Origin: a virus | DNA: 64,000 nt | IMG/VR virus record: IMGVR_UViG_3300044949_001245 | Span: 1 to 64,000 of that record | Reading direction: 5' to 3' (one strand) | Part shown: positions 5,833 through 48,983 of the stretch, piece by piece | How the letters are laid out: every line of letters begins with the position of its first letter | Numbering within the stretch: position 1 is the stretch's first letter | Translations under genes and position numbers: made by a program | Notes under the pieces: generated by a model | Databases searched by the model: none | The model's input: the letters and a program-made list of their open reading frames with translations, nothing else | Told to the model about the DNA's origin: nothing

Positions 5833-5837
5833 CTAAA

Positions 5838-6314
5838 TTATTCTTTTGTTGCTACAATAATGACCAATGTTGCCTTGCTATTGATTGGGACTTGTACGTT
5901 TGATATTCTGATGTCATTCAGCAAATTTTTTACGTTCCCTAGTGAGAAATCACAAGTGGTCGCTAAAACTACATCAACGTCATCTAGTATAACGTCAAAT
6001 CTTATCGGCAATCGGTATGGTTTGGTTGTGGTTGACTCATAACAAAAAACATGAAGACTCACTACATCACCAACCCCTCTTAAAATATCCTGTTGGATAT
6101 TTACATCAAAGTTGTTTCCGTGTTTTAATTCCCATGAGTATTTGTTAGCATTACTTAATTTGAAATCTTTTGTAACTCCGCCATCTTCATTAGGCACAAG
6201 CTCAGCTGAATCACCATCATATGTCCAATCAACACTTCCGCTATTGCCCACTCCAAATGAGGACATACCTGGGTCATCTTGGAACGCTATTTTATTTGTA
6301 ATTTTGATAATCAT
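5838..6314 (-). CDS. Hypothetical tail-module protein
   Basis: ATG at 6314 directly after the fibre stop (the track extends the ORF to 6332). Confidence 0.6.
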   Translation of the reverse strand: MIIKITNKIAFQDDPGMSSFGVGNSGSVDWTYDGDSAELVPNEDGGVTKDFKLSNANKYSWELKHGNNFDVNIQQDILRGVGDVVSLHVFCYESTTTKPYRLPIRFDVILDDVDVVLATTCDFSLGNVKNLLNDIRISNVQVPINSKATLVIIVATKE

Positions 6315-6315
6315 C

Positions 6316-8796: not shown

Positions 8797-8815
8797 GTCT
8801 TTACAATTTTTACTT

Positions 8816-22724: not shown

Positions 22725-24683
22725 TTAAGCACTTAAATTAGCATCAAGCATGAACCCTGTAACGAATATCTTATTGATTGGACCATTCGGAACATACGCA
22801 TACTTGACATCGTAATAATCTTGAATCAATCGTACAGTTACATTCTTAAACGTGATAATCAAGTTATCAGTTGAGTCTGTCGCTGTTCTTGAAATCAAAT
22901 AACTCGTCACGAATGATTTTACATCCGCTGGAGTGATTGTTCCGATGTTGTTGCCTATGAATAAAGGTCTCATGTTCAAAATGAGTTCTTTGTTCAGCTG
23001 GGCAGCAATTCGCATAACGGAAATCTCAAATGAAGTCCCATCTGGGTTGATAAGCTGAGTGTTCCGTTGTAGTGAGTTGATTCCTTGATTCACTACGTTC
23101 CCAATTCCTGGTACAAATCGGTTATGGAGAACACCAGCTTGTAGTGCTTTCTCTCTTTCTTTTTGTCCCAAAGGATGAATAAAGTCAGTCCAAGTCAAAT
23201 TCTTAAATGTTATCGGTTGTTGTGGCTCCAAACCTCCTAAACGACCTACCACATTTGCAGCGTGATAGATTGAGTCTAGTTTCTCTACCCCACTTCCTCC
23301 AGCGATGGCTCTTTTAACTCCACTATGAACCACTACAACACTTGTTGTATCGAAAAATTTAGCAATTTCAATAGATGAGTCAGGCACGTTCTCAAATTTA
23401 GTGATATCACTACCGCCTCCAACAATCATGAACTTCGTCATCTCAGCATCAGTCTTAATGTGGTTGAGAATTTTCACGTTTTGAGTTCCTGTTGCTTGAG
23501 AACCCCAGCGGTCAGAAAGGAAAAATGTATTGTCTAGTTCCTTAATGGTTTCCAAAGTGTCATCTAAATCAATCGCACCATAGTTTGTAGTTCCGCCAAA
23601 AGCAAGATTCAAGTTTGTCCAGTTACTCAAATCCACTGCGTCAACCAAACCAGTTCCGTTTATCACCCAGTTATCATCTAGCTTAAATCGTTGATTGAAA
23701 GCAAAATCATTTTTTGCCCACTGAATCAAAGGGTCAATATTGTCAAACTCTACTGATGTAGCAATCAAGATAGGGGCAGATAATTGAGGACTCAAACCTC
23801 CGATGTGGTTTCCAGCCATGTCTAACCCTCTGTACGTTCCCTCATAGAACTTAATCATGAATTTGTTCGGGTCATTATCACCAGGTGTCATTAAAGCAGC
23901 ATATCCTACTGCTAGTTGAGTTCCGTTTACACCTCCAGAAAATTGAGTCACGCTTGTCGTTACTGTACCAGTTGTAGGCGCAGAAATCACCCAGCCGTTA
24001 GCAGCAGCTCCAGATATTGGTCTTGCTACTAAAATAATCTCTCCAGCCTGTTCATATGCGGTGTAGCCAACGTTTGCTGCGTTCAAATCTGATATCAAAA
24101 GTGCTCTCAAATCGGATGGCGATGTTGTAATAGCAGTTGATGTAACTAAAGGAATTGCTCCAGAGCCTTCATCGACAGCTATCGTAACACTTGAACCTAT
24201 CACTATTGGACCACTCACTGAAACTTTACCTTTGGCTAAAATTTCATCCTCATATCCATTCCCACATTGACCCTCATTCTTACACAAGAAATTAACAGAA
24301 CCTCCGTTTGGACCACCTCCAACAAAGCCATAACCTATTTGGGCTGGAGTTGTATTCGCTGCTCTAGTAAGATAAACTGTTTGTGGTCCATTTGCCCCAG
24401 ATGCTGGTGAGAAAATGTATCCTGCTAAATCATACAAAAGTCCGCCACGCACGAAATTTTGGAAATCACTTACATCGGAAAATGAATAAACTGATGAAAG
24501 TCCTTCATCCATAGCTCCATTCATTCCTGAACCGCCTCCATATTTTGCGCCCGAACCAGTGTCGATGATGCAGACATTCCCGAATGAGAATGTGGTTGGC
24601 TGAGGTGGAATACCGCTTTTAACAATCGCATATACTCCAGGCTCAATTATTCTTTTGCCGCCAAAATTTACTATCGTTGCCAT
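22725..24683 (-). CDS. Tail sheath protein
   Basis: IIEPGVY N-terminus; PITFKNL...ALQAGVL...VVNQGIN...EISVMRI sheath C-terminal domain. Confidence 0.92.
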   Translation of the reverse strand: MATIVNFGGKRIIEPGVYAIVKSGIPPQPTTFSFGNVCIIDTGSGAKYGGGSGMNGAMDEGLSSVYSFSDVSDFQNFVRGGLLYDLAGYIFSPASGANGPQTVYLTRAANTTPAQIGYGFVGGGPNGGSVNFLCKNEGQCGNGYEDEILAKGKVSVSGPIVIGSSVTIAVDEGSGAIPLVTSTAITTSPSDLRALLISDLNAANVGYTAYEQAGEIILVARPISGAAANGWVISAPTTGTVTTSVTQFSGGVNGTQLAVGYAALMTPGDNDPNKFMIKFYEGTYRGLDMAGNHIGGLSPQLSAPILIATSVEFDNIDPLIQWAKNDFAFNQRFKLDDNWVINGTGLVDAVDLSNWTNLNLAFGGTTNYGAIDLDDTLETIKELDNTFFLSDRWGSQATGTQNVKILNHIKTDAEMTKFMIVGGGSDITKFENVPDSSIEIAKFFDTTSVVVVHSGVKRAIAGGSGVEKLDSIYHAANVVGRLGGLEPQQPITFKNLTWTDFIHPLGQKEREKALQAGVLHNRFVPGIGNVVNQGINSLQRNTQLINPDGTSFEISVMRIAAQLNKELILNMRPLFIGNNIGTITPADVKSFVTSYLISRTATDSTDNLIITFKNVTVRLIQDYYDVKYAYVPNGPINKIFVTGFMLDANLSA

Positions 24684-27235: not shown

Positions 27236-28027
27236 TTACAGAACATTAAATCTGATTCCATAATACTCTGCTCTCAAATTTTGTAGTTGAACCCCTAGTT
27301 CATCCGCATATTGCTTTATTCTACCTGAGAATGCTCCCCCTCCGCCACTTTTAGTGGTGGAATAAGACTGGCTAATACCATCTATGGATATACTCTGGTT
27401 TCCTACCCCCGCACCATATATCAAATCGCCAGTAATCGCCAGAATTTGGATGGCAGCAGCTTTGGCTACAGCGTCAACTAAATCCGCTGGGCATTTATCC
27501 CAACCTGTACAATATTTCAATCTCCAATAGTTAGGTATAAAATCAGTTCCAAAAAATCCCAAGTGCGGTGTAATGCCCGAAAACACGAACGCATGTTGAC
27601 TCATTTGAGCACCGCCTTTCGTGTTTGGAATCAAATACAAGTTCCTGAACTTCGTTGGGTCATTGCCTCGCTTTATGCTCAACCATTCCTCTGGATAGCT
27701 CACTTGCTTTATGTTGTTTATGTATCCCAAAAGTCCAAGTGGCTCTTTTATCGGGAACACAGTCTTGATGTAACCCCATCTGTAAAACTCATTCCGTATG
27801 AAATCGTGATTTTCCCAGATTATTTGTTTCTTGAGCTTTATGGACAAAAAATTCTCTAGCTGCTTTTGCGCAACTTCAATTTTTTGTTTGATTGTTTCCA
27901 TACTCAATGTGCTTCCATCAGGATAGCAGAGTGGAATGCCTGTTAGGTACAACTCTATTAACGATGAAGGACTGATAACCAGCCCTTCATTTACGTTGTA
28001 CTTTACTTTCAAAGTCATAGTACTCAT
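27236..28027 (-). CDS. Head-tail adaptor protein
   Basis: LKYCTGW...PADL...GAGVGNQSISIDGISQS. Confidence 0.75.
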   Translation of the reverse strand: MSTMTLKVKYNVNEGLVISPSSLIELYLTGIPLCYPDGSTLSMETIKQKIEVAQKQLENFLSIKLKKQIIWENHDFIRNEFYRWGYIKTVFPIKEPLGLLGYINNIKQVSYPEEWLSIKRGNDPTKFRNLYLIPNTKGGAQMSQHAFVFSGITPHLGFFGTDFIPNYWRLKYCTGWDKCPADLVDAVAKAAAIQILAITGDLIYGAGVGNQSISIDGISQSYSTTKSGGGGAFSGRIKQYADELGVQLQNLRAEYYGIRFNVL

Positions 28028-28049
28028 ATTCTCAAAATTTGGCTGCTAA

Positions 28050-28487
28050 TTACTTCGCATTTTTACGCAGAAAGTTTATCATGAGTTTTTTTGACTTGGC
28101 ATATTTTGAATAGTCCTCTTCAGTGAACCCTGCTTGTTCAGCAATCTCTTTTAGCTCACTCAAGGTCATTTCATCCAAGCCATCTTCCTCTTTAGTTTCC
28201 TGTTCTGACGTTTCCTCTTTAATAGATGTTACTTCTTGCTCCTTGACTTCTAAAACGACTTCCTCAGCAAGTTTATCAGCATACAGTTCTTCAGTCACTG
28301 TCGTTCCGTTGCCTTTAACTAACTGGTATGAGTCTGTCTTGGTAAGTAACAATGTTGCTACTGTGTCCTCTACCTCTAGGTTGCCATTTGCTTCCACGAT
28401 TGTTTCTCCGATGGTTGGCAAAATTATTTTGCCGCCCCATAAATTTTTGTTTGTTGCTCTCAACAATACTTTTTCTGATTTTTGCAT
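28050..28487 (-). CDS. Hypothetical protein with C-terminal Rho-N/HeH-like helical motif
   Basis: LDEMTLSELKEIA...SKKLMINFL; follows the capsid gene. Confidence 0.65.
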   Translation of the reverse strand: MQKSEKVLLRATNKNLWGGKIILPTIGETIVEANGNLEVEDTVATLLLTKTDSYQLVKGNGTTVTEELYADKLAEEVVLEVKEQEVTSIKEETSEQETKEEDGLDEMTLSELKEIAEQAGFTEEDYSKYAKSKKLMINFLRKNAK

Positions 28488-28512
28488 GACTTCGTTTTTA
28501 ATTGTTAATACT

Positions 28513-28549
28513 AAAAAGGGTGAGCAGATAAATACCCACCCACCCTTTT
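28513..28549 (-). terminator. Rho-independent terminator after major capsid gene
   Basis: Minus strand GGGUGGGUGGGUA/UAUCUGCUCACCC stem with G-U pairs, then a U-tract. Confidence 0.85.
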
Positions 28550-28575
28550 AACTTTGTATCACAGTTGGTTTCCTA

Positions 28576-30072
28576 TTACAGTGAACCGATGTTAATGAAA
28601 CGAACCATTTTCTTTGGCGCATACAGGAAAGGTGTTCCGTACAGCAAAATCATAAATCGGTACGCTGGACTCAAGATAGCCAAATCCATTTTCATCAGCG
28701 GAGCAAGTTGAGCAAACTCTACAACTTCATTATCCATTTGGAAAAGGATTGCTTGGTCAGTGTTCGGCATAAATCGGTTGCGGTCACGAACTGTACCAGC
28801 AGAAGCACCATCGTAACCCGCAGTGTTCTCAGCTACTGAGACATCAAACAAAGGATAGAAAGTAGCACCCGCAAAAGTGGTAGCATTCTTATTTGACCTG
28901 TAAATTCTGTACGATGTAGCTGGGGTTGTACCACCACCATCGGTAAAGTCAAGGTTAATTGAACCGCCAGCAACTACCGCAGCAGGAGCAGTTCCAATTT
29001 GTGTTAGGGCAGTTTCTCCGTATCTGTTCACGGCTGATACCGCATAGATGTAGTTTCCAGCGTCAGTTGTACTCCATTTAGAACTAGCATCAACAGCCAC
29101 AGGGGTCAAAGATACTGAAGTCACTGGGTTTGGCGCACTAGGTGATGTTGCCGAAGATGTTGAAGTTTTTGAAGGCAACTTCTTGAAGAAAATATCGTAA
29201 TTCAAACCAATTCGACCAAATTGTGAATCGAATGATTGAACACGCTGACCCATTACACCAGCTGAGGTCATTTCGGTGTTCGGCTGGATGAACTTGTTTC
29301 CATAGAACCCTTTAACGAAATCAGACATCACTTTTGGCGGAGCAAAAAGCTGGTTACCCAAACCAAAGTTTTCAACGATGCCATTCGCACCTGTTTCGAT
29401 GCTCTCCTCATCTAGTGCTGCGCCACGAAGGTCAACAACCACTTCTGAGTTCATGTATGAATCAAGGTTCAACCAGTTGTCGTTACGCTGATGTTGCGCC
29501 AAAAATCCGTTGAATTCTTGCGGAACCAAAGCCTCATCACCGAAATAAAGTGATTGGTTGATTTTACGCAAAATCCACATAGTTCCGTTCTTGATTTCAC
29601 GCTCCACGATGTTACCAACCATGTTGTTAACAAGTGTCATCGGATGAGTAACACTTTTTGTTACACCCAAGAACTTCACTAATTGCGCACGTCTGATGTA
29701 CAATGAGTCCTCTTCATTCGGCAATTCGCCCTCGTTGTAGAAACCACCTCTGTTAGTACCATAAGAGGACAATTGGTTGTATTCTTCAACAGTGTTGAAA
29801 GCAGACTTTTTCGGCACAACTTTCCATAGTGCGATGTCGCTTTCCTTAAATGTGAGGTGTTTCAAAGTCTTGTCCAGACTTTCAACTTTTAACGGAGCAC
29901 CCGATGCTGTCGACAAGTCTGTTGTTTCACGACCTGTAATCTGACCAGCTTCAAGTGCTTTGTTCAACTGGTTCAATTCTTCCATGTTTGAACCACCGAA
30001 AACTGCTCCCTGGCCGTTACCAGCATTCGCAGCAGCATTGGCATAATCTGCCAAATTTAATCCTAAACTCAT
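28576..30072 (-). CDS. Major capsid protein
   Basis: GAPLKVESLDKTLKHLT, TVEEYNQ, FYNEG, KFLGVTKSV, LFYGD-like and FNG motifs of SPO1/Twort-like capsids; strongly biased codon usage. Confidence 0.93.
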   Translation of the reverse strand: MSLGLNLADYANAAANAGNGQGAVFGGSNMEELNQLNKALEAGQITGRETTDLSTASGAPLKVESLDKTLKHLTFKESDIALWKVVPKKSAFNTVEEYNQLSSYGTNRGGFYNEGELPNEEDSLYIRRAQLVKFLGVTKSVTHPMTLVNNMVGNIVEREIKNGTMWILRKINQSLYFGDEALVPQEFNGFLAQHQRNDNWLNLDSYMNSEVVVDLRGAALDEESIETGANGIVENFGLGNQLFAPPKVMSDFVKGFYGNKFIQPNTEMTSAGVMGQRVQSFDSQFGRIGLNYDIFFKKLPSKTSTSSATSPSAPNPVTSVSLTPVAVDASSKWSTTDAGNYIYAVSAVNRYGETALTQIGTAPAAVVAGGSINLDFTDGGGTTPATSYRIYRSNKNATTFAGATFYPLFDVSVAENTAGYDGASAGTVRDRNRFMPNTDQAILFQMDNEVVEFAQLAPLMKMDLAILSPAYRFMILLYGTPFLYAPKKMVRFINIGSL

Positions 30073-30117
30073 AGCTCTGTTTTTTAATTGTTTGTTAAAA
30101 CTCTTTAATTGTTTGTA

Positions 30118-30130
30118 TAATACCTGTTAC
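30118..30130 (-). promoter_or_regulatory. Candidate late promoter (GTAACAGGTATTA) for the major capsid gene
   Basis: Exact 13-mer, 46 nt upstream of the capsid ATG. Confidence 0.65.
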
Positions 30131-31707
30131 TGTACAATGTTTACGTTATGCTCTGATTTTAATCTCGCAATCACATTGTTACTCAGCGGTGAACCAGCCT
30201 CAAAACTCATCAAGGCTTTGGCAAATTCTTCATCATAACCGCCTTTTGCGATTGTAGCAGCATCAAGTACATTAAGGATTGCCCCTCTGTGTTCGCTGGT
30301 ATGAAGAGTGGCATTGCCGGCAGCACGACCTCCTTTTTCAAGATTGTCCGCTCCAAAGTTGCGCTCAACATAACCTTTAGTGATAGACTTGCGTCCAGTG
30401 GGCTGTGTAGAAAGTTCCTCTACTAATTCAAGTGCTTTTTGTAAGTCCTCTCTAGTAGCACGCAACTCTCTTTCTTGGCGCCACATTTTGCCTTTTAGCA
30501 ATTCTGTAGCATCCATCTGTGCCTTTACTAATTGTGCAAGGGCACGTACATTTTGCGTATTTGAACTTGTTGACTCGTTGATAGCTTTGATAATGTCAGT
30601 TTGGAAAGATTTTTTCACATACTTCATCCCCTTTTCTTCATTGTCCTCATCTTCATCTTGCTCCCCCTCTTCAGAGTTCATTTCATCTTCATTGTGAGAA
30701 TCAACGTCAATGTGAATTTCTTTTTTCAGACCTTTGCCTTTTTTCATTTCGTCATCGGCAGCATCTTTTTTCTTTTTCTTGGCATCATAACCATACTGCT
30801 CTTTCATGACTTTTGCAGCAACCTCTTCATCTGACTCTTCGTCATCTTCATCGGCATCATTGCTTTTTGGCTTTCCCATGGACTTTTTCGCTTTCTCCAA
30901 AAATGGATTTTCGTCCATATTTTCCAAACCCAGAGCACTCATGGCTTTCTGAAGGTCTTTGGTTTCGATTGTTTTTCCTTTTAACATTGCTTGTTCTATT
31001 TTAATTAACAGATTGTTGAATTGTTCTGCTTTTTCAATACTAATACCTGGGAATGTGTCAAAAATTTTATCATACCTTTGCTCCTCAGTCATATTCTTCA
31101 CCTTGTACCCATCTACGCTGGCGGGCATTAGCGCACGACCATCGCCTGTATCTAGTGTCTTTTTTGTATCAACATCATCCTCTTCATTCTTCTCCATATC
31201 GTAATCACACCCCTTTCCTTTAATAATATCAGCGAATGTTTGAGGATTTTTAGGCATGTGTGTAATAGCCAATCCTGTTATCTTTGCTTGCTTTACTATT
31301 TTAGGATTGGTAACGTCACGCTCAATAACAGTTCCCTCAATACTGTACCCTAGTCTGCGTGTCTTTGAGTCTTTCTGGAGAACTTCCGCAAGTTGATAAA
31401 CCTCTTTGGCTAAATCACTATTTGGATACAAATCAGTTTCTACATAAAACCCATCCTTGCGAATTTCTGCTTTGCATGGCTCACCTATGATTGTGGCTGG
31501 GCTGTTCTTGGCTTGGTGATGCCAATTCACAACTCCTGACTTTTTGAAATCTGAAATGTCAAACCCAGATGGGTCAAGAAATTCACCATCAGCATCTTTA
31601 TCCATAGTGGAGGCAATACCCCCTAGTCTCATCACTTCCTTTCCATTCTTGTCTTTCCCCTTACTTATTTCAACAGGGCACCAGAACTTAAATTTTTGCT
31701 CAGCCAT
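30127..31707 (-). CDS. Prohead protease with fused scaffold-like C-terminus
   Basis: GIAST..KDADGE, VNWHH, LGYSIEG, AITHMPKNP; long acidic and coiled-coil tail. Confidence 0.9.
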   Translation of the reverse strand: MAEQKFKFWCPVEISKGKDKNGKEVMRLGGIASTMDKDADGEFLDPSGFDISDFKKSGVVNWHHQAKNSPATIIGEPCKAEIRKDGFYVETDLYPNSDLAKEVYQLAEVLQKDSKTRRLGYSIEGTVIERDVTNPKIVKQAKITGLAITHMPKNPQTFADIIKGKGCDYDMEKNEEDDVDTKKTLDTGDGRALMPASVDGYKVKNMTEEQRYDKIFDTFPGISIEKAEQFNNLLIKIEQAMLKGKTIETKDLQKAMSALGLENMDENPFLEKAKKSMGKPKSNDADEDDEESDEEVAAKVMKEQYGYDAKKKKKDAADDEMKKGKGLKKEIHIDVDSHNEDEMNSEEGEQDEDEDNEEKGMKYVKKSFQTDIIKAINESTSSNTQNVRALAQLVKAQMDATELLKGKMWRQERELRATREDLQKALELVEELSTQPTGRKSITKGYVERNFGADNLEKGGRAAGNATLHTSEHRGAILNVLDAATIAKGGYDEEFAKALMSFEAGSPLSNNVIARLKSEHNVNIVQ

Positions 31708-31718
31708 TTTGTTATTTA

Positions 31719-32129
31719 TTAAATTTCTAAAATTCCAATATCAAGTTTGTTGGCAAACAAGAAATCATAAAGTATGTCTTGCTTGGTCTTTGGATTTTTG
31801 CCCTTAAAATCTGCGTGGGACATCGCTATGGAAGCAAGATAGTCACAAAACGCATTATGAAAGAACAAAATCTTTTCAGCTTTTTTGGTAGTCAATTTTA
31901 TATCATCAGGACAATCTTTGAAATAATGTGCTTTCATAGTCCTATCTAAAAAATTCTTTTGGTCATTGACATCAACCAACGGAAATTTGCCTTTGAATGG
32001 TAACAGCTCACTTGGCTTATTTTCATAAAGCACTGATGTTACCTTTCCAATTCTAATAGATGTGAACTGGTTTCTGTATAACTGCTCCTCAGCGTCACCG
32101 CCAGCTTTCTCTTGTATGAACCATTCCAT
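31719..32129 (-). CDS. Hypothetical head-module protein
   Basis: 136 aa; begins FIQEKA. Confidence 0.7.
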   Translation of the reverse strand: MEWFIQEKAGGDAEEQLYRNQFTSIRIGKVTSVLYENKPSELLPFKGKFPLVDVNDQKNFLDRTMKAHYFKDCPDDIKLTTKKAEKILFFHNAFCDYLASIAMSHADFKGKNPKTKQDILYDFLFANKLDIGILEI

Positions 32130-32131
32130 TA

Positions 32132-34378
32132 CTACTTACTTTTATTGTTTTTTCTAACTTTCAATTTGCTTCTGTTTAGCACAATCGCAAAATCCGTACT
32201 ACCGCCCCAACCATTCTTTTGAATTATCATGTCGTAACCCTTTATTGCCGCATAAAACCCTCTGAACTCTCCATTAGGTCTTTTAGCAATGTCTGCCATT
32301 ATATGGTGTAGTGAAGAACTGCCCTGACCTCTCAACTTATTGACCTCGTCAGCTACAGCACGTAATTTATCTTGCGCATCTTTTGCTTCCTTTTTAACAG
32401 CTTCAATTTTGTCAGAATTTTTCAACTCTTTTTCAATCTCTTTATTTATCACACCATAGTGATTTTCTATCACGAAATCTCGCAACCTAGAATAGTGGTG
32501 ATTGTATTTTTTAGTGTTTGAATTTTTCTGCTTTACACTCCTATCTGCCACACCCTCATTCAACATGAATTTTTCTGATGAGAGTGGCAACTCTATCTCT
32601 AAAGTTCTGCCATTATCATGTTCCGTAATTTTCGCCCCTAGTGATTTCACAAGTGCTTGATAGTACCTTTTAACCTTACCAAATGAGTGAACCTCTGGGT
32701 CAGCGTAAACTATATCAGCCCTTGAATTAAGTGCGTCCAAAGCCTTTTGATTCCAACCCATATTATCCTTTACATCTTGAGCAATAATTTTTTCGATGTT
32801 CCTAGCTTTATCATTTAGCTTATCAACCTCATTTTTCAGGTCATCATACTCTTTTTTCTTTTCCTTAAACTCTTCTCCAAAGAACTCCTCATTCATCATC
32901 TCATCCAACTCTTGCGCATCAATTATGCGGACATCTTTATCTATGGCTATATCTATAACGTGACTTGAGTCTTGGCCAGCATAATCTAGTGCTATGCTGT
33001 AATCTGAATTTGGCGGTGGAGGATTTTTCTTGGTCTTGTTTACAGCAGCGTAAATTCCAGCTCCATACATTCCAACCATTCCATAAAAGCAATCATCTTT
33101 CTCCTTGAAATTCCTTATCCAAGTTTGAGCACTCACTCCTGAAGTTCCTGTTAGTCCACGCTGGATTAACTTTACATCGTCATCTTCTAGCAATTTGTCG
33201 AATTTTTTATCATCCAACAATTCAGGCTTTTTATCAAACCCACGCATCTTACAAATTTCAGACAAGAACATCCAACCAACCTTACTGTTTTGGTTAGTAA
33301 TCTTGCCCCCAGCTTTCTTTAATGCTTTTTCAATTTCTTTTTCTGTTAATTCTCTGTATGGGTCTTCATTTTCATAGTCATCATCTTCCAACCTAGTTTG
33401 TAGGTCAAAAAATCTTTTGGCCATCTTTATTTTCAAGTCTTTGTCTTCAATCAAAGACAAAATGGCTTTCTCTTTACTCAACAAATCTTTTATTTGATTG
33501 TTGATATCCTTTTGGGTCAAGTCATGAGTAATGGCTAAATTTTGCGACACCATTGAGTCCAATTCATCAACCTCATCGGTAAATGACGCCCCCTTATCAC
33601 GACCAGTGGCTGAGAACCTTAAAGAACCACCATTATCCACCCTATAAACCAGTCCGTCATCCTTATTGACTAGTATGTTATCATTCTTATACGCATCCCA
33701 ATTAGCCAGCAAACAATCAGCAACGTACCCTTTAAGAATTTCTTGTTTGAGGTTGTCGTCCAAGATATTATTCGCTGCCTCTGTATTCTCCATGTACTCA
33801 GACAGGATTGCTACGTTTGAAGTTCCCTTTTCGTAAATTTGCATTCTTGGAACAGTCAATCCAATCTCTTCATAGATTTTGGTAGCAAGATATTCCTCTT
33901 CAACGTGAGCTGGTGACGCACCCCTCTTCATTACATACTTCTTGCCTGTTGCTGGGTCTTCCAATAGCTTTGCTCCTGTGGAACCACCTAGTGTTTTATT
34001 AACAGGCACAAGTTTACTTATATCATCAGGAAAGTCATCGTAATCATCTGTTGCTTTTTTCTTTGGTTGTTTTACAGCTTTCCTCCAATCCAACTTCCCC
34101 CCTTTGGTCTTTTTTACGACATAAAGGACACCATTCTTTACTTTCTGTTCCCCCTCACGCAAAGCCTTAAAAAGATTTTCATCTGGCTCCAGTCCGTTGA
34201 GATAGTCATTGAATGTTTTAGCCTTAATCAACTCATGTTGTGTGTCGGACACCCAGCCAGTCTTTTCCCTAACTGACTCAAGTGCCTTTACCAGCGTGAA
34301 ATCGTCCAATAAGCCATCTTCATTAGCTTTAACAATTCGCTGGAACGAATTTTCAATATCAATGAAATTCTCCGACAT
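32132..34378 (-). CDS. Putative capsid-internal effector: HipA/PI-kinase-like domain plus ADP-ribosyltransferase-like domain
   Basis: Kinase-like motifs LGGSTGA..KYVMK..EEEYLA..DCLLANWD..NIL..RVDNGGSL; ART-like motifs IQRG..GMYGAGIY..ALDYA..KGYDMI..IVLNRS. Confidence 0.7.
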   Translation of the reverse strand: MSENFIDIENSFQRIVKANEDGLLDDFTLVKALESVREKTGWVSDTQHELIKAKTFNDYLNGLEPDENLFKALREGEQKVKNGVLYVVKKTKGGKLDWRKAVKQPKKKATDDYDDFPDDISKLVPVNKTLGGSTGAKLLEDPATGKKYVMKRGASPAHVEEEYLATKIYEEIGLTVPRMQIYEKGTSNVAILSEYMENTEAANNILDDNLKQEILKGYVADCLLANWDAYKNDNILVNKDDGLVYRVDNGGSLRFSATGRDKGASFTDEVDELDSMVSQNLAITHDLTQKDINNQIKDLLSKEKAILSLIEDKDLKIKMAKRFFDLQTRLEDDDYENEDPYRELTEKEIEKALKKAGGKITNQNSKVGWMFLSEICKMRGFDKKPELLDDKKFDKLLEDDDVKLIQRGLTGTSGVSAQTWIRNFKEKDDCFYGMVGMYGAGIYAAVNKTKKNPPPPNSDYSIALDYAGQDSSHVIDIAIDKDVRIIDAQELDEMMNEEFFGEEFKEKKKEYDDLKNEVDKLNDKARNIEKIIAQDVKDNMGWNQKALDALNSRADIVYADPEVHSFGKVKRYYQALVKSLGAKITEHDNGRTLEIELPLSSEKFMLNEGVADRSVKQKNSNTKKYNHHYSRLRDFVIENHYGVINKEIEKELKNSDKIEAVKKEAKDAQDKLRAVADEVNKLRGQGSSSLHHIMADIAKRPNGEFRGFYAAIKGYDMIIQKNGWGGSTDFAIVLNRSKLKVRKNNKSK

Positions 34379-34386
34379 AGTTTTTA

Positions 34387-35901
34387 TTACATTAGGTCAA
34401 GATGAGCCAAAGCCTTCATCAATTCATTACGCTCATCTTCTTTACGACCTTTGGTCAAAAATTTAGCAACCTCTGGCTCCCACTCTTTGACATCTCCAAA
34501 TAGCAATCTAGCTGTCGTTGGGTCAGCTTCAATAAGCTCATTTGCGTTATCTATTGACCTTTTAATCTCTAGTGCCTCTTTGAAAGTCCTTGAGCTAAAT
34601 TTAGCTGGGTCCATCTTACCAATGTTCTTTTTAATCAAATCGAACACCGCTTCACGTTCTGCTACATCGTCAGCCTTATTCTCCAATCTTGGAACACCTG
34701 TGAAGTTCATCTTGTGTTTAAGATGCTCCATCATGTCAAGTTTTTCTGACTTGGTGAATTGAATATCTTGTTTTAATGCTCTCGTGTAAACTGCGTTGAT
34801 ATGCTCATCTGCCGTCAAGTCATGTTGGTCCATGTTAGTCAAGAACAAAATCTTACCATTGAACTCAAATGGGTCTATATTGGCATTTTTGTTAGTGGAT
34901 TTTTTACCGACTATTCTCTTGCCTGAAGATGCGGTTGCTTTCTTCATAATGCCCATTGTTTCATCTTTTTTAAGAACTTCATCGGCATCGTCAAATACAA
35001 TGATTTTTCCGTTATGCTCTTTCAAAATTTGCGCCAGCTGAACAGGTGAGGTGATTTCAGGTGCCTCTACATAATCATAATCACTATCTCCAGGCTCATC
35101 AGTTTCAGGATTGAATGCCTTCTTTCCTAAATGCTCCGCAATCATGTGCATATTGAATGTTTTACCGACACCAGCACCGCCTGAAGCAATCATTAATGGA
35201 GAGTCAGTCCTAAAAAATTGTGCGTAAGTTTTATTGAGGTTGAAGATGTGTTGTTGTGGCTCTTCATAATCAGCGTCAGATGTCTTCATCTTATGTATAA
35301 AGGCATCCGCATCAATACGTTGTTGTTTAGTTTTTAAGCCACCAAATTTCTTTTTAATATAGGCTGGATTGGTCCACTCTTTACCCTCTTCCACATCCCC
35401 ATCTATTCCATCAAGTGTGTCACTTTCTCCATCGCCAGATGTATCGTCAGCATCGGTATCTGCAACTTGCTTTGTCTTTTTGTTGGCAGTTCCTGTTCCG
35501 AACATTTCTTTCATCTTCTTGAATTTTCCTGTATTCAAGTTGATGTCTGAAACATCTTCGCCACGTTTAACAAGCTCATCGTATGCCTCTTGTCGCAGCG
35601 TTGGGTCATTGTTAGGATTTTTAGCAAATGTCTTTATCTTATCTGCGTCTTGGGTCAACAAGAATGCTCTCAATTTTTGAACTTTGTTGCCATCGCCCTT
35701 ACCAGCTACATTTCCTGTAGTTCCTGTAATCTGCTTTTTGCCTTGTTGTGGCTTTCCTTTTCGCCAATCGAATTTTCCTGGCTTGATTTCAGTCCAGTAC
35801 CTAGTGATGCCGTCACTTCCGACTTTTGAATCACCGACTTGTCTAGCCTTGACCAAGTCTTCATTAAGTATGCTCTCTAAAACAGATGATGTCCTATTCA
35901 T
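34387..35901 (-). CDS. Putative capsid-internal AAA+ ATPase with N-terminal targeting-like modules
   Basis: Walker A GGAGVGKT, Walker B IIVFDDAD, FNGKILFLTN. ATG 35901 preferred over the GTG at 35928. Confidence 0.8.
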   Translation of the reverse strand: MNRTSSVLESILNEDLVKARQVGDSKVGSDGITRYWTEIKPGKFDWRKGKPQQGKKQITGTTGNVAGKGDGNKVQKLRAFLLTQDADKIKTFAKNPNNDPTLRQEAYDELVKRGEDVSDINLNTGKFKKMKEMFGTGTANKKTKQVADTDADDTSGDGESDTLDGIDGDVEEGKEWTNPAYIKKKFGGLKTKQQRIDADAFIHKMKTSDADYEEPQQHIFNLNKTYAQFFRTDSPLMIASGGAGVGKTFNMHMIAEHLGKKAFNPETDEPGDSDYDYVEAPEITSPVQLAQILKEHNGKIIVFDDADEVLKKDETMGIMKKATASSGKRIVGKKSTNKNANIDPFEFNGKILFLTNMDQHDLTADEHINAVYTRALKQDIQFTKSEKLDMMEHLKHKMNFTGVPRLENKADDVAEREAVFDLIKKNIGKMDPAKFSSRTFKEALEIKRSIDNANELIEADPTTARLLFGDVKEWEPEVAKFLTKGRKEDERNELMKALAHLDLM

Positions 35902-35929
35902 AGTGATAAATTTGATTTCATTTATCACT

Positions 35930-35942
35930 TAATACCTGTTAC
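35930..35942 (-). promoter_or_regulatory. Candidate late promoter (GTAACAGGTATTA)
   Basis: Exact 13-mer, 29 nt upstream of ATG 35901. Confidence 0.65.
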
Positions 35943-35951
35943 ATCATCATT

Positions 35952-37379
35952 TCATCGTTGCCATTTGATAGGCACAGAACATCCGAAAAATTCAGTCATC
36001 ATTTTTTCACTTTCCTTAATGACTTCGCTTGAGTTTTCACCTTTGGCTAGTTTACTTAACCTCTTGTTATCCATAGAATTATCAATGACCCTCTTCATGT
36101 TTTTCACTGGGTCAAACAACAATTTTGCTAATTCAAAGTTATGTTTCACATCACGTAAATATTGAGAATTTTTCATTTTTAGCGCATCATTTAGGTATCC
36201 AGCGAACTGTTTTGGAGTAACATCCCATGGAACATAAATTGCCCGCAACTCATCACGAATTATATCGTCAATTTCACATTTTGGCTCAATAAGTCCTCTA
36301 GTATCTCTCAAAACAGGATATGAACCATTGATGATTGCTTCGATGGTAAATCCATTAAGATGCGTGTTAGAATACTGCGCATAATGTTTACTGAACGATG
36401 GGTCAATACTAAACTTGGCATTTTTCTGAACCATATAGACATCTTCATTAGACATGAAGCCCATATGTTCCATTCCGTATTTCAAGGCACGCTCCCAAAG
36501 ACTCATTCCTATATCACCCGCATCGCAATCTGGGTCAGTGCTTTTAGAAACAGTATATCTTGACTTAAACTTGTCTTTGTCTTGAGTGGTCATATAGTAC
36601 AACTCTATCCCTGACCCCCCTATCCACATGCTTGACCCCTTATCTAAATGAGGCATCAACGCCAACAAGTCCTCCATCTTTTTCATAGACTTGAAAACGT
36701 GAGCTGCGAAAAAGTCCACTGGTCTTTTCGTCATCGGTGTAAGGTGTAATTTCTCAGGTATGTATCTTGAGGCAAAATTTAATTGTCTAGGTATCGAAAA
36801 ATTTTCGCAACAGTTGTAAGCTGACAAGTGTACACAATCTAACAACGTGATTTTATCCTCCAAATACCTTATCCAGCTGTTCCGAATGTCGAAATAACCA
36901 TCATGTACTGCCATGACTTGCTTGACGCTAGATGGTAGGTCAAAAAACTTGGGCCAAAAATCTAGTCCTTTTGCCTCTTTGGTTTTGGTTGGCGTAAAAC
37001 TCCAGAACACTAAATCAACACCCTCCATAGCCTTGTGCCAAAGCTCAAGTGCATTATCCGCAAAAATCGGTATTCTGTTTGTATATGGAGGCAATATCCA
37101 ACCATAGTACGAATTTCTCCAATAGCCAGTAACCTCTGATTTTGTGTACCCCCCAGCTTGCGACCTGTTGTCTTGCTTACTTTGAAAATCTCCACTTTCA
37201 AGTTCCGCCAGTTTCTTTTCATATGAACCAGCTGGTATGGACTTATTGTAGGTGAGGAAAATGATGTCGACATCGTGACCCATTTCCTTAAACGCTTGAA
37301 CTCTACTTTCGACATTTTTTACAATGCCTCCGTATTTTGCGATGTCAAACGTACAAATTCTGATTTTTAATTTCTTCAT
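35952..37379 (-). CDS. Glycosyltransferase (GT-B fold)
   Basis: YGGIVKNV...FKEMGHDVDII, AVHDG, KSMKKMEDLL, MGFMSNEDV, GFTIEAIINGSYPV. Confidence 0.8.
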   Translation of the reverse strand: MKKLKIRICTFDIAKYGGIVKNVESRVQAFKEMGHDVDIIFLTYNKSIPAGSYEKKLAELESGDFQSKQDNRSQAGGYTKSEVTGYWRNSYYGWILPPYTNRIPIFADNALELWHKAMEGVDLVFWSFTPTKTKEAKGLDFWPKFFDLPSSVKQVMAVHDGYFDIRNSWIRYLEDKITLLDCVHLSAYNCCENFSIPRQLNFASRYIPEKLHLTPMTKRPVDFFAAHVFKSMKKMEDLLALMPHLDKGSSMWIGGSGIELYYMTTQDKDKFKSRYTVSKSTDPDCDAGDIGMSLWERALKYGMEHMGFMSNEDVYMVQKNAKFSIDPSFSKHYAQYSNTHLNGFTIEAIINGSYPVLRDTRGLIEPKCEIDDIIRDELRAIYVPWDVTPKQFAGYLNDALKMKNSQYLRDVKHNFELAKLLFDPVKNMKRVIDNSMDNKRLSKLAKGENSSEVIKESEKMMTEFFGCSVPIKWQR

Positions 37380-44570: not shown

Positions 44571-46205
44571 CTATCTTTTTAACATGTTATTCAAAAACGA
44601 CTTTACAAATGGATTGTCATCTGACTCCCCCGACATAAATGGATTTTCCTCATCCATTGGCTCTCCTAGAAATTGGTTTATGTCGAAATCCTCATCACCG
44701 CCCCCCTCTTGACCAGACATCCCCATCCCTCCAGCTTGTTGTGCCTGTTGTTGCTTCATCATCAGCTGTTGTGAATAGGTTGGGTTCAAAATTATATCAC
44801 CGCCCTCTACTGGCTCCAATGCGTACTTTTTACGAATTTCGTTCACAGTTTGGAAATTGGCTAATTTCTTAACCTCAACGTCAAGTTCCTCTTGAATCGT
44901 CATACCATTTAAGCCCACGAAACAAAACTCATAGTCTGGGTCTATTTGCGCTATGATGTACTTGTTTATCTTTCTCTGGATGAACTTCAAAAGTGGATAT
45001 AAACCCTTGTCTTTTGAGTGCTTCAACTGCCCCTCGTTATTACTCTCAAACAATGACTTCGTTCCTGGTGTAGTGGAAATGTTAAACCCAATTTCATTTG
45101 GGTCAATCGCATAGATTGCGCAAGACAACTTGATGAGATATTCAGTCCATGAGTTGTACTCCATATCTCTATTCGACTTTTGTAAGTCAATCCAATCTAT
45201 ATCCGCATCAACTATCGGTGTTTTCCAAGATTGCTGAACGCCAGTAATCATAGACAACCATTCCTGTCTAAATGCCTGTAGTTGCTTTTCGTTTACATTC
45301 CCCTTTACTCTTAATAAACCCTTTGGAGCTGACCCCTGACTGAAGAAACGCTTGTTGTATTCGTCAGCCCATAGCATGGATGTTACTGTGCTCACTAGTT
45401 CCTCCAACTCACTCATTCCGTACCCTTGATTGTGTAGGTTGGTGGATGGGTTGCGAACTCCGAAACACAACTCCCATGGATAAAAGACACTTTTGACACT
45501 TCCTTGGTATATCTGTACATAAGATGGGTAATGGCCATTAACCATTTCCCTCTCATCACCTTGGTACATGTCGTCATCGTATGAGTCAGCCAGTCTGAAA
45601 GTAGCAGCATCCGTTGCGAAAAATTCATACAACTTTCCTTTCCTATCTCTTACAATCTCAAAGGTCATTTGGTCATATATGAGTGAGTCTTCAACCATTT
45701 TTCGGATGAATGTTTCAAAGTCATCTGTATGCCATCCTGAAGTAACTCCGCAATTCAAAATTGTGTCTTGAAGTTCTTCAATCTTTGTCCATTCCTCTGG
45801 AGTATTGTCACGCTCTGGTTCGCCCAACTTTCTCTTTTTGCGAATGATGAACCCAGTTGAGTATTTGTCCGCTTGCGGTTCAGCAAAGTCAGCAATCTGA
45901 TTTTTCCTAGTCTTCAGGATTGCGTTGATAATCGGTGTTTTGGACATCCGCTTGAGTGTAGTGTAACTCAGTGAAAATGGTTTGTCCTTGTAGCCAAAGT
46001 TGTGATTGAATTCAAGTGGGTCTATCAAAAAACTCTTTTTCTTACCAGAGTTGACTGCGTCATTTTCCTCTAGTATCTGCTTTGCTCTTATTAAATCCCC
46101 AGGTGAATTACCAGTCATGGCTTTTTCCAAAAGCATCATCTTTTTCACCGCTAGTTTTTGTTCTAGCGATGAAATTGAATCTAGCTTATTTTTGATTGAA
46201 CCCAT
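44571..46205 (-). CDS. Portal protein
   Basis: EDSLIYDQMTFE, GYGMSELE, NKRFFSQGSAPKG, RDMEY, IDPNEIG, KDKGLYPLL, TVNEIR. Confidence 0.93.
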   Translation of the reverse strand: MGSIKNKLDSISSLEQKLAVKKMMLLEKAMTGNSPGDLIRAKQILEENDAVNSGKKKSFLIDPLEFNHNFGYKDKPFSLSYTTLKRMSKTPIINAILKTRKNQIADFAEPQADKYSTGFIIRKKRKLGEPERDNTPEEWTKIEELQDTILNCGVTSGWHTDDFETFIRKMVEDSLIYDQMTFEIVRDRKGKLYEFFATDAATFRLADSYDDDMYQGDEREMVNGHYPSYVQIYQGSVKSVFYPWELCFGVRNPSTNLHNQGYGMSELEELVSTVTSMLWADEYNKRFFSQGSAPKGLLRVKGNVNEKQLQAFRQEWLSMITGVQQSWKTPIVDADIDWIDLQKSNRDMEYNSWTEYLIKLSCAIYAIDPNEIGFNISTTPGTKSLFESNNEGQLKHSKDKGLYPLLKFIQRKINKYIIAQIDPDYEFCFVGLNGMTIQEELDVEVKKLANFQTVNEIRKKYALEPVEGGDIILNPTYSQQLMMKQQQAQQAGGMGMSGQEGGGDEDFDINQFLGEPMDEENPFMSGESDDNPFVKSFLNNMLKR

Positions 46206-47613: not shown

Positions 47614-48048
47614 TCAATTTTGTTTATCTAATAACTGTCGCTTGAACTTATTTATGTGCTTGTTGATGAAAGTTATTTCGATGTCGTCATCAGATGAATG
47701 ATGAATGAAAATGCGCCATGATTTCATTTTCACTATCATTTCATTTTCACCGCCTGAACTATCTGGTATTGAGTACGTTTCAGATGATTTTGATGAGTAA
47801 ATGAAATTGACTACATCCATGAAACACTCTACATCATCTTGCTCCGAAAATGAAAAAGTGACTAAACTGTTAACATCAGTGTTCAACAATTCAGCCACTC
47901 TAGTGTAATGTTCTACTTCCGTATTGGTCAGACTAAATTCACTTACTGCTTTGTAACGTAAACTTCTGTTGTTTGCGGACTGAACACACTCCGTTGCTTT
48001 CCCTCTCCAATTTTCATCTTCCAATACTTCTGGAACTCGCATAGCCAC
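47614..48048 (-). CDS. Hypothetical protein
   Basis: 144 aa; the start overlaps the upstream gene by about 100 nt and is uncertain. Confidence 0.55.
   Translation of the reverse strand: MAMRVPEVLEDENWRGKATECVQSANNRSLRYKAVSEFSLTNTEVEHYTRVAELLNTDVNSLVTFSFSEQDDVECFMDVVNFIYSSKSSETYSIPDSSGGENEMIVKMKSWRIFIHHSSDDDIEITFINKHINKFKRQLLDKQN
47629..47641 (-). promoter_or_regulatory. Candidate late promoter motif (ACAGTTATTA)
   Basis: Plus strand TAATAACTGTCGC, 37 nt upstream of ATG 47592, at the start of the portal operon. Confidence 0.5.
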
Positions 48049-48983
48049 ATTTCTATTTGGTGTAATGTAATTTTACCCTCTTTTGGTGTAACTATTTTAT
48101 ATTTGTTATTTTCTTTATCCCAATCCAAGTATTTGAAATCACCTATCTCAGCAAGTTTAGCCTTGGCCATGTCACGCAACATGTAAATTCCTTTTATCTG
48201 TTCGCCCTTACTTAATGACGGAAAAATTAACCGAATGCCGATGGAAGCACCTGGTCCAACATTCGTAAAATCATCTTGGTCAAACTTCATCAGTTGTATT
48301 CCTGAATATCTTGGCGCATATGTAAAGTCCTGATAAAATTCATGAGCAATAAAATCAGCAACTGCCGGCAATGTTTTCAAATAGCTTATTAACTCCTTTG
48401 GCTCTTTTGCGCTCAATAGCAGTTTGTTTATTTTTGGGATAGCAGAATGTATTGACGGAACAACTACTTGCGTGTAGCACCAATCTCTTTTCGCACCAGG
48501 ACAAGCCTGTGAATTTATCAGATACGCATTTGTATAAGGATTGTTTCCAGTTTCTCTGTATCCGTATATCAACTCAGCCCACTCACCCTTATCGTACTGG
48601 TCATAGCTTGGAAACATACCATCAAAAGATTTTTTCTGGCTACCTATCCACTCAAATGTTTCAGGGCAGTTAAATATCCTAAAAAGCATGATTTTCCAAA
48701 CCAAGTCCTTTCGACTATTTGGCTCCATCAAAACGTGCTTTATTTGCCACTGCGAATGTCTGTCCAGTTCCCGAAAAACATTTGTGAATTTATGATTGGA
48801 CATAAATGGGTCTTGGCTCCATGGTCTTGATTCATTCTTTACAAATCTGCGGTGCCATATTTCTTGTCGCTCAAACATGGTTTGAAAAAATAAACCTAGA
48901 TTTTCATCATCCACTTCCTTGTCCGATGATGGTAGGGCATTCCCCCAAGACTTCATACCATAAGCTGTTCTAAATTCTTCCAT
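47943..48983 (-). CDS. Alpha-glutamyl/putrescinyl thymine pyrophosphorylase clade 1-like (amino acid:DNA transferase superfamily) DNA hypermodification protein
   Basis: ERQEIWHRR..PWSQDP...KFTNVFRELDR, FRIFN, YTNAY, FIAHEFYQD, VGPGA..GI, IEMWLCEFQKY. Confidence 0.85.
   Translation of the reverse strand: MEEFRTAYGMKSWGNALPSSDKEVDDENLGLFFQTMFERQEIWHRRFVKNESRPWSQDPFMSNHKFTNVFRELDRHSQWQIKHVLMEPNSRKDLVWKIMLFRIFNCPETFEWIGSQKKSFDGMFPSYDQYDKGEWAELIYGYRETGNNPYTNAYLINSQACPGAKRDWCYTQVVVPSIHSAIPKINKLLLSAKEPKELISYLKTLPAVADFIAHEFYQDFTYAPRYSGIQLMKFDQDDFTNVGPGASIGIRLIFPSLSKGEQIKGIYMLRDMAKAKLAEIGDFKYLDWDKENNKYKIVTPKEGKITLHQIEMWLCEFQKYWKMKIGEGKQRSVFSPQTTEVYVTKQ

Follow-up and report, generated by a model that had tools for sequence, protein, structure and literature searches.

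Within the 64,000-nucleotide stretch of viral DNA analyzed here (the window; positions 1 to 64,000 of IMG/VR record IMGVR_UViG_3300044949_001245), an open reading frame (ORF) at 32132..34378 on the minus strand encodes a single chain of 748 amino acids (ATG at 34378, stop codon at 32132-32134) that carries an atypical protein-kinase-like domain followed by a domain resembling the ADP-ribosyltransferases (ARTs). We propose, with a probability of roughly 0.5, that this kinase-ART gene specifies a late-made two-enzyme effector that is probably packed into the prohead and passes into the host together with the phage DNA. The parts of the protein, listed below, were delimited with AlphaFold 2 (AF2) models of its two halves: an N-terminal model built from 120 aligned sequences, with a mean predicted local distance difference test (pLDDT) score of 91.9, and a C-terminal model built from 105 sequences, with a score of 95.3 (protein numbering = model numbering + 334).

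32132..34378, minus strand: whole ORF (P0001), 748 amino acids plus stop; more than 100 full-length relatives with 700-844 amino acids, and 135 related stretches in IMG/VR viral contigs
34199..34378, minus strand: N-terminal three-helix region, residues 1-60; AF2 helices 3-20, 26-40 and 46-60, pLDDT blocks 88-96
34067..34195, minus strand: beta-meander module of ~40 residues, residues ~62-104 (K-A..G..KV..G..Y....G..DWR); AF2 strands 78-81, 84-90 and 96-100
33374..34039, minus strand: atypical protein-kinase-like domain, residues ~114-335; Gly loop 130-136, K151, E162, D221..N226-W-D228..N232-D233-N234, D248-N-G-G
32912..33286, minus strand: ART-like domain, N-terminal half, residues ~365-489; R407-G408 at a strand end, G-x-G-I-Y443 strand, Y466 helix, two more strands
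32279..32911, minus strand: insertion, residues ~490-700; antiparallel long helices (~502-539 and ~627-684) and a small alpha/beta unit (~544-614) in the AF2 model
32135..32278, minus strand: ART-like domain, C-terminal half, residues ~701-748; helix, G-Y-D716 before a strand, L-N735-R736

An earlier note on this DNA had picked out eleven motifs in the chain, and all of them were recovered at the places it implied. Those of the kinase block, LGGSTGA, YVMK, EEEYLA, LANWD, NIL and VDNG, begin at residues 130, 148, 160, 224, 234 and 247, and those of the ART-like block, QRG, GMYGAGIY, ALDYA, GYD and IVLNRS, at residues 406, 436, 463, 714 and 732; each occurs once in the protein, save the trivial NIL (two occurrences). 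The motifs are conserved across relatives and hence not due to chance. A word-indexed protein search matched 151 proteins at E ≤ 1e-3, about 105 of which are full-length relatives (678-906 amino acids, 25-93% identity) on contigs that reach 126 kb. When 46 full-length relatives (26-68% identity) were aligned, K151, E162, Y169, D221, N226, D228 and N234 were invariant on the kinase side, as were R407, G408, G433, G441, Y443, Y466, G707, Y709, G714, Y715, D716, N735 and R736 on the C-terminal side. The conserved C-terminal set, including R407, Y443, Y466 and D716, was unchanged in 105 of 105 sequences, and R407, Y443 and D716 were at least 90% conserved in 40 remoter relatives.

The family is poorly represented in reference collections. 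The whole protein yielded nothing significant against Pfam, PHROGs or NCBIfam, no precomputed Pfam domains were recorded on the full-length relatives, and phmmer and the family profile returned only coiled-coil noise (haemagglutinin HA2, spike HR1) from PDB sequences. In a tblastn search of 50,697 phage records, none contained a homolog covering at least 80% of the query, and the 20 records with any match belonged to Gordonia, Pseudomonas, Escherichia, Enterobacter, Morganella, Actinomycetia, Yersinia and Aeromonas phages. Our literature search found no description of this protein family, of a CtkA/CotH-like kinase in phage heads, or of an ART with the R-Y-D residues discussed below; the supplementary alignments and architectures of PMC5512222 could hold either family.

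For residues ~114-335, the AF2 model and the fold searches agreed on a bilobal kinase fold. Foldseek, run against the PDB with the N-terminal model, returned 169 matches at E ≤ 1e-3, headed by PI3Kalpha (3.2e-5), actin-fragmin kinase (1cja, 4.0e-5), CtkA (3akj, 6.5e-5), HipT (8ezs, 1.3e-4) and PI4KIIIbeta. A VIA-align ranking of the kinase model, which covered 48,161 chains, gave the following (three values per row).

CtkA: 14.0, 3.7, 202
CotH: 12.9, 3.5, 206
PI4KIIalpha: 12.2, 4.3, 210
Actin-fragmin kinase: 12.0, 4.2, 205
HipA: 11.7, 3.9, 187
MavQ: 11.5, 4.4, 205
Rio kinases: ~11, 3.7-3.9, 159-163

Identity between the phage domain and CtkA (H. pylori), CotH (Bacillus), PI4KIIalpha, actin-fragmin kinase and HipA/HipT is 12-20%. 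The earlier description of this block as HipA/PI-kinase-like was therefore borne out for the fold, which Foldseek and VIA, run on the AF2 model, place near CtkA, CotH, PI4KII, actin-fragmin kinase and HipA, but not for membership of the named families: Pfam HipA_C (PF07804) fell short of its threshold (E 0.09, 12.9 bits against a cut-off of 30.5, residues 141-186 only), and PI3_PI4_kinase (PF00454) did not match the kinase-ART protein at E ≤ 1.

The residues expected at an ATP site and a catalytic center are present, with GGSTGA (131-136) and D248-N-G-G at least 90% conserved in the 46 sequences; residue roles were assigned by sequence order and secondary structure, not by residue-level superposition. 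The Gly loop, the D/N catalytic loop and the residues K151, E162 and D248 are all conserved, which makes it very likely that the domain is an active phosphotransferase. Its D..N.D...NDN catalytic loop and D-N-G metal loop presumably follow the style of the PI3/4-kinases and HipA, and the substrate class (protein, lipid or other) is not readable from the fold.

The kinase module (~114-330) also occurs elsewhere, at 36-51% identity, in proteins bearing RelA_SpoT, ART-PolyVal, ADPrib_exo_Tox plus Phage_Mu_F, Phage_Mu_F alone, Portal_Mu or NUDIX. A local hidden Markov model (HMM) detected it in eight further proteins from a search with the PF18760 (ART-PolyVal) region, seven of them with PF18760 on record, and in Aeromonas phage ST4 gp109, which is annotated as “ADP-ribosyltransferase”. 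Altogether, the module accompanies PF18760 in at least 10 proteins (P0108, P0121, P0187-P0190, P0272, P0274, P0280 and P0283); PF18760 is on record for nine of the ten, and P0272 entered through the PF18760-region search. Pfam found nothing on ST4 gp109 or on GodonK gp67, a Gordonia phage protein described later. A specific coupling of the kinase to ARTs was considered and rejected, as the 15 kinase-bearing proteins outside the family from the word-indexed search include three with a recognized ART, two with RelA/SpoT and two with NUDIX; this mix of partners looks like ordinary polyvalent shuffling.

We consider that the C-terminal domain probably belongs to the ART superfamily, and we read it as a divergent member near the ART-PolyVal/PARP (H-Y-[ED]) clade that forms an unclassified family. 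In the AF2 model, its first half runs helix, short strand 386-388, strand 403-408 (R407-G408), helix 417-426, strand 442-447 (G-I-Y443), helix 458-466 (Y466) and strands 474-479 and 485-487, and its second half helix 705-712, G-Y-D716, strand 717-720 and strands 730-733 and 739-742. The ART core is described as a split sheet with inserts (PMC9503650, section 3.3.1), and this strand and helix order fits it. The invariant polar residues fall at R407 at the end of strand 1, Y443 in strand 2, Y466 in the next helix and D716 before strand 5; in ART-PolyVal, H-Y-D occupy the strand 1, strand 2 and strand 5 positions (PMC5512222). By manual count, R407 and Y443 are 36 residues apart, against 35 from the His to the strand-2 aromatic in PF18760 proteins.

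Several low-scoring comparisons point to the same superfamily. The seven named Atlas language-model clusters listed for residues 345-495 were ART-PolyVal (0.81, 0.80 and 0.79), a cluster whose members share no family (0.78), Arr-ms (0.77), Exotoxin A (0.76) and PARP (0.76). For the compact homolog P0179, 13 of 30 Atlas matches lay in a set whose best cluster (0.93) has PF18760 on 20% of its members, a share that this listing shows only for rows from 0.9. The GYDA[IL]IQ block aligned with the GYD[AG] block of PF18760 with an hhalign block score of 19.8, equaled by none of 100 column shuffles; the blocks were picked by the analyst, so that this support is at the level of motifs only. A weak PARP match in P0181 (E 0.05) sits exactly on the GxGxY...Y motif, P0131 and P0158 have weak PF18760 matches on the homologous region, and the best sub-threshold PF18760 match among the relatives reached 25.6 bits. 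Weak Foldseek rows included PARP14 (3goy_D, E 2.8) and a PARP (4hhy_A, E 2.9) from the PDB, as well as “PolyVal ADP-Ribosyltransferase” (E 0.96) and “ART-PolyVal-like” (E 1.2) from BFVD.

The domain was also followed into its relatives. An exhaustive phmmer search with residues 345-495 gave 79 representatives at E ≤ 1e-3, about half of them members of the kinase-ART family and the others either stand-alone proteins of 185-390 amino acids or long multi-domain proteins. Pfam matches in 40 relatives outside the family were as follows.

Phage_Mu_F: 10 of 40
Phage_min_cap2: 4 of 40
NUDIX, next to the ART-like domain: 4 of 40
ART-PolyVal, best E 2.3e-5, below cut-off: 4 of 40
PARP, best E 0.0024: 3 of 40
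Zeta_toxin: 2 of 40
Lambda-type portal: 1 of 40
ADPrib_exo_Tox: 1 of 40

The adjacency of NUDIX fits NAD/ADP-ribose chemistry. One further protein, P0124 (1540 amino acids), reached E 1e-25 through 19 short matches to query positions 61-98 (residues 405-442, before a proline run) and had odd Pfam matches; it is probably a low-complexity artefact and was left out of all counts.

A number of results tell against an ART assignment, and with it against a two-enzyme effector. No ART signal is significant by itself. Foldseek with the C-terminal model gave no PDB match at E ≤ 1e-3, so that a check of both regions by AlphaFold and Foldseek, which the earlier note had proposed, upheld the kinase and left the ART fold without a significant PDB match. 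In two VIA searches of the PDB, all 50 rows listed for each were coiled-coil matches on model residues ~165-353, and the PARP chains of the Foldseek list were not among the rows listed; the insertion's coiled coil, having taken every listed row, appears to dominate fold searches. A profile of the 40 remoter relatives had no match in the PDB. Full-domain hhalign against a 25-sequence PF18760 subfamily returned a probability of 0.7% and was negative at both default and permissive settings, and the score of the Tyr block was reached by 6 of 100 shuffles. Searched with the PF18760 HMM, the protein gave no match (E ≤ 1) and neither did the genome (E ≤ 10), and the family threshold of 31.2 bits was not reached. 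Atlas scores below 0.9 are leads only. Further, R-Y-D is neither of the canonical triads (H-Y-[EDQ] or R-S-E), since Arg stands where ART-PolyVal has His (PMC5512222), and the domain contains no S-T-S or E-x-E motif. In addition, comparing the profile of the kinase-ART family with P0108 and P0121 gave a kinase match only, and PHROGs found nothing for the ART-like domain on the compact homologs and ST4 gp109.

These negatives are what would be expected if the protein were a kinase-only effector, in which the C-terminal domain has an unrelated, uncharacterized fold for target binding, oligomerization or capsid anchoring and the R/Y/D/N-R residues serve another chemistry or structure. The lack of any match to the domain in Pfam, PHROGs and NCBIfam agrees with this view, as does the large coiled-coil insertion, which suggests a structural role. 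We nevertheless regard it as rather unlikely because independent weak signals (Atlas, sub-threshold ART-PolyVal and PARP matches in the correct register, the GYDA block, the strand order and NUDIX) agree on one superfamily, and because polar residues that are invariant in 105 of 105 sequences argue for catalysis. The label “ART-like” given to this block by the earlier note accordingly stands as regards motifs, invariance, strand order and weak ART-family signals, but no structural or profile match of significance backed the fold.

The note's further suggestion, that one ART-like block is split by a long coiled-coil insertion, proved anatomically right. The AF2 model shows the long helices, and the two halves are separated by only 22-104 amino acids in 33 compact relatives, against 198-321 in the long-insert forms of the family type. 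As the compact relatives join the halves, the split reflects a lineage-specific insertion of ~210 amino acids in a single domain. The coiled-coil and alpha/beta insertion may bind a target or oligomerize.

At the other end of the protein, residues 1-60 had no family match in Pfam, PHROGs or NCBIfam, and the linker between the meander and the kinase is disordered (AF2 pLDDT below 50 at residues 104-108). The meander itself is shared with the neighboring gene for an AAA-type ATPase: by blastp, residues 51-108 align with residues 5-65 of the AAA protein (24 of 61 identical, E 2e-5), and an HMM that covered residues 62-104 and drew on kinase-ART family sequences only matched just the kinase-ART ORF (1.8e-19) and the AAA ORF (2.2e-9) among the genome's 537 ORFs. 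Judged by this sharing, a portable capsid-addressing or anchoring tag is a reasonable inference as the candidate function of the ~40-residue module. A search for the module in proteins below 411 amino acids yielded one candidate and no scored match; this search was word-limited and is not evidence of absence. The remote relative P0178, read by eye and without a score, has a similar N-terminal string before an ART-like domain alone.

The kinase-ART gene lies in a head-morphogenesis cluster; the structural and other genes around it in the window are listed here.

22725-24683, minus strand: tail sheath, further downstream; phrog_279
28576-30072, minus strand: major capsid protein (MCP), downstream of the kinase-ART gene; phrog_752, E 2.5e-84
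30127-31707, minus strand: head maturation protease/scaffold, downstream; phrog_1028, E 2.4e-38
31719..32129, minus strand: orf136, a small gene of 136 amino acids, which begins 2 nt past the kinase-ART stop codon
34387..35928, minus strand: AAA-type ATPase, 513 amino acids, upstream; PF00004 E 2.3e-4, phrog_1250 E 2.9e-20; shared N-terminal module at its residues ~22-60
44571-46205, minus strand: SPO1-like portal, of the SPO1/Herelleviridae type

The note was thus right to place the gene in a head module, since the genes for the head maturation protease/scaffold and the MCP follow it closely on the same strand. This arrangement extends well beyond this genome: 135 IMG/VR stretches encode a relative, and in the 79 loci kept from them for synteny counts, the AAA gene was upstream in 77, orf136 directly downstream in 76, the protease/scaffold present in 74 and the MCP in 67. 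The neighbors follow the order AAA > kinase-ART gene > orf136 > protease/scaffold > MCP on one strand, and most misses are contig ends. This conserved order, together with the MCP, protease/scaffold and portal of the window, places the kinase-ART gene inside the head cluster and marks it as a core head-module gene of a broad clade.

We infer delivery, by analogy, from (i) the position in the head operon, (ii) the finding that both domains recur elsewhere as the cargo of MuF, portal and minor-capsid proteins, (iii) GodonK gp67, and (iv) the model provided by T4 Alt and the polyvalent proteins. The chain does hold at least two effector domains from the pool found in MuF and portal fusions. In the proposed mechanism, the N-terminal addressing part (residues 1-~105), with the module common to the adjacent AAA ATPase, would load the protein into the prohead; the two enzymes would be released into the host together with the phage DNA; and, on entry, the kinase with ATP and the ART-like domain with NAD+ would modify host proteins. 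The outcome would be host takeover or blunted defenses. The analysis establishes the ORF, its conserved motifs, the kinase fold, the single C-terminal domain with its insertion, the shared module, the conserved gene order and the presence of both domains in MuF and portal fusions; the ART fold, NAD+ use, catalysis by either domain, packaging, ejection and the targets are predictions.

Three observations count against this mechanism. Neither the protein nor the 88.6-kb record contains MuF (PF04233) at E ≤ 1, so that packaging has no direct sequence marker. Strict conservation as a core gene is met more often in structural or morphogenetic genes than in accessory effectors. Finally, coverage of the kinase-ART gene in RNA libraries amounts to three short pieces from one run (X22), possibly through DNA carry-over. 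These libraries are two metatranscriptome-library runs of one bioreactor study that contain a relative of ~94-95% identity; across window positions 28000-36000 their contigs cover the MCP fully with long contigs and the kinase-ART and AAA genes with short pieces only. The pieces are not counted as proof of transcription, and the uncovered parts carry no meaning.

The first two of these observations raise the alternative that the protein is a morphogenetic or structural core component of the head, standing in for MuF, whose enzymes would act in the infected cell on the capsid, the scaffold or the phage's modified DNA and not on host targets after injection. Its core-gene behavior, in a fixed slot between the portal-side genes and the protease and MCP in 74-77 of 79 loci and down to 29% identity, speaks for such a role, and a candidate DNA-modification gene lies nearby (ORF 47943-48983, with relatives in ViI-like and M6-like phages). 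We hold this alternative to be unlikely, however, for three reasons. Elsewhere both domains appear at the C-terminus of MuF, portal and minor-capsid proteins as exchangeable cargo, beside Zeta toxin, RelA/SpoT and NUDIX, which is the pattern of injected effectors (PMC5512222); ViI-like, M6-like and SP10-like phages are absent from the 20 phage records with a match; and Chryseobacterium phage MA9V-3, whose MCP and portal make it the nearest relative in culture, lacks the gene, indicating that it is not needed to build this capsid type. The idea that MA9V-3 carries an equivalent effector was rejected, as an unrelated protein of 1459 amino acids (5217-9596, minus strand) occupies the slot that in the present phage contains the AAA and kinase-ART genes. 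What lies upstream of the protease gene seems to differ from clade to clade.

A different role is raised by orf136, for which Pfam, PHROGs and NCBIfam gave no family match and which is a candidate immunity, chaperone or regulator partner. The kinase-ART gene and orf136 could form a toxin-immunity-like pair in the style of MuF polymorphic toxins, with orf136 neutralizing the kinase-ART toxin inside the producing cell, serving to exclude competitors or superinfecting phages rather than to take over the host. MuF toxins typically precede small immunity genes, relatives of both domains are found on MuF proteins, and orf136, with its start 2 nt past the stop codon, is retained at 76 of the 79 loci. 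Such a pairing is nonetheless very improbable, given that the phage looks lytic and myoviral and orf136 has no recognizable family; it also overlaps with a packaged two-enzyme effector rather than excluding it.

In a bolder version of the two-enzyme reading, which we put forward as a rather unlikely speculation, the R-Y-D proteins would be a previously unclassified ART clade with a hybrid site (the Arg of R-S-E toxins plus the Tyr/Asp of the H-Y-D clade), widespread as head-delivered proteins that stand alone or ride on MuF, portal or NUDIX partners. In this phage clade the domain would be firmly wired to an atypical kinase, the repeated and independent pairing of that kinase with four different ART families would reflect cooperation on one host target, and the ~40-residue module would be a MuF-independent capsid-addressing signal that loads both the kinase-ART protein and the AAA ATPase.

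The earlier note took the known phage kinases and ARTs to be separate proteins. As a premise of novelty this does not agree with the record: a computational study of 2017 (Iyer, Burroughs, Anand, de Souza and Aravind; PMC5512222) had described polyvalent phage proteins that join ARTs with kinases and further enzymes in a single chain, and the kinase module studied here is itself fused to three other ART families, RelA/SpoT and NUDIX. Like the kinase-ART protein, the polyvalent proteins of phages and conjugative elements combine several effector enzymes per chain, are encoded beside head genes, and are predicted to be packaged and injected (PMC5512222). They differ in that the protein reported here has two enzyme domains only, without MuF, peptidase or LPD modules, and has Arg for His in strand 1. 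With ART-PolyVal (PF18760, Tox-ART-HYD2 clade), the C-terminal domain shares the Tyr in strand 2, the Asp in strand 5 and the GYD[AG] block, and the kinase module is elsewhere fused to PF18760 itself. Polyvalent kinases are described as Ser/Thr/Tyr kinases without a C-terminal subdomain and with a His..Asp phosphotransfer pair (PMC5512222); compared by description only, this does not obviously fit the phage module, which has the loop N-W-D and CtkA, CotH and PI4KII as its best folds.

T4 Alt, a late-made, head-carried ART that acts on host proteins at entry (PMC5512222, PMC9503650), provides the functional model for the predicted kinase-ART effector. Alt, however, belongs to the R-S-E (Alt/VIP2) clade and has no kinase, whereas the C-terminal domain here is without S-T-S or E-x-E. 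The T7 gp0.7 protein is a phage Ser/Thr kinase that acts on many host proteins, and it has been reported to disarm defenses broadly (PMC13645617); in contrast to the proposed effector, it is early, newly synthesized and no virion component, and no sequence or fold match to it turned up in the searches made.

The closest parallels in culture are Gordonia phage GodonK gp67 and Phendrix gp66, the only cultured-phage proteins found with both the kinase module and the ART-like domain. GodonK gp67 (5692-10131, plus strand, 1479 amino acids) is encoded after the portal gene and annotated as hypothetical, with the kinase module at 93-276 (E 1e-28) and the ART-like domain at 1088-1216 (E 3.6e-20). A Foldseek search of BFVD links the ART-like part to GodonK gp67/Phendrix gp66 (E 0.085, probability 0.99, 133 columns, root-mean-square deviation 3.4 A). 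These proteins differ in being twice as long, with ~800 amino acids between the domains and a compact ART-like domain without the insertion, and they come from actinobacteriophages with unrelated genomes.

Multi-enzyme, head-delivered phage proteins thus form an established class, and other proteins already show this kinase module fused to ARTs. What, judged by the literature search, appears to be new is (i) a fixed combination of kinase and ART-like domain in a gene that belongs to the core of a large uncultured clade, (ii) an unclassified R-Y-D family with a variable insertion, and (iii) a small N-terminal module in place of MuF. If correct, the interpretation would add an ART-like and an atypical-kinase family, both missed by Pfam, PHROGs and NCBIfam, to the enzymes that phages carry into cells, and it would point to MuF-independent loading of enzyme cargo into the head. 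As several effector enzymes in one phage head protein have been published, and activity and delivery are here predicted from sequence, the advance is limited to that extent. Fixation as a core gene in a large clade of ~100-kb freshwater myoviruses suggests that the function is probably central to the start of infection, and GodonK gp67, as a cultured system, offers a possible experimental handle for both domains.

The window belongs to an 88.6-kb viral record with an estimated completeness of 89%, in which essentially all long ORFs are on the minus strand. The nearest relatives of its MCP and portal are from Bacteroides phages DAC/SJC (MCP 48%), MA9V-3 (41-42%) and SPO1/SP-10-like Bacillus phages; the portal is 40-41% identical to Bacillus phage portals and 42.5% to that of Chryseobacterium phage MA9V-3. 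From the capsid relatives only, our guess is that the host may be a member of the Bacteroidota. Given the tail sheath, the phage looks lytic and myoviral. The ORF at 47943-48983 (minus strand, 346 amino acids) has relatives in 236 phage records, including ViI-like Salmonella phages, M6-like Pseudomonas phages and Bacillus phage YungSlug, all of which represent groups with thymidine hypermodification. Near-identical DNA was present in lake and freshwater metagenomes of several studies.

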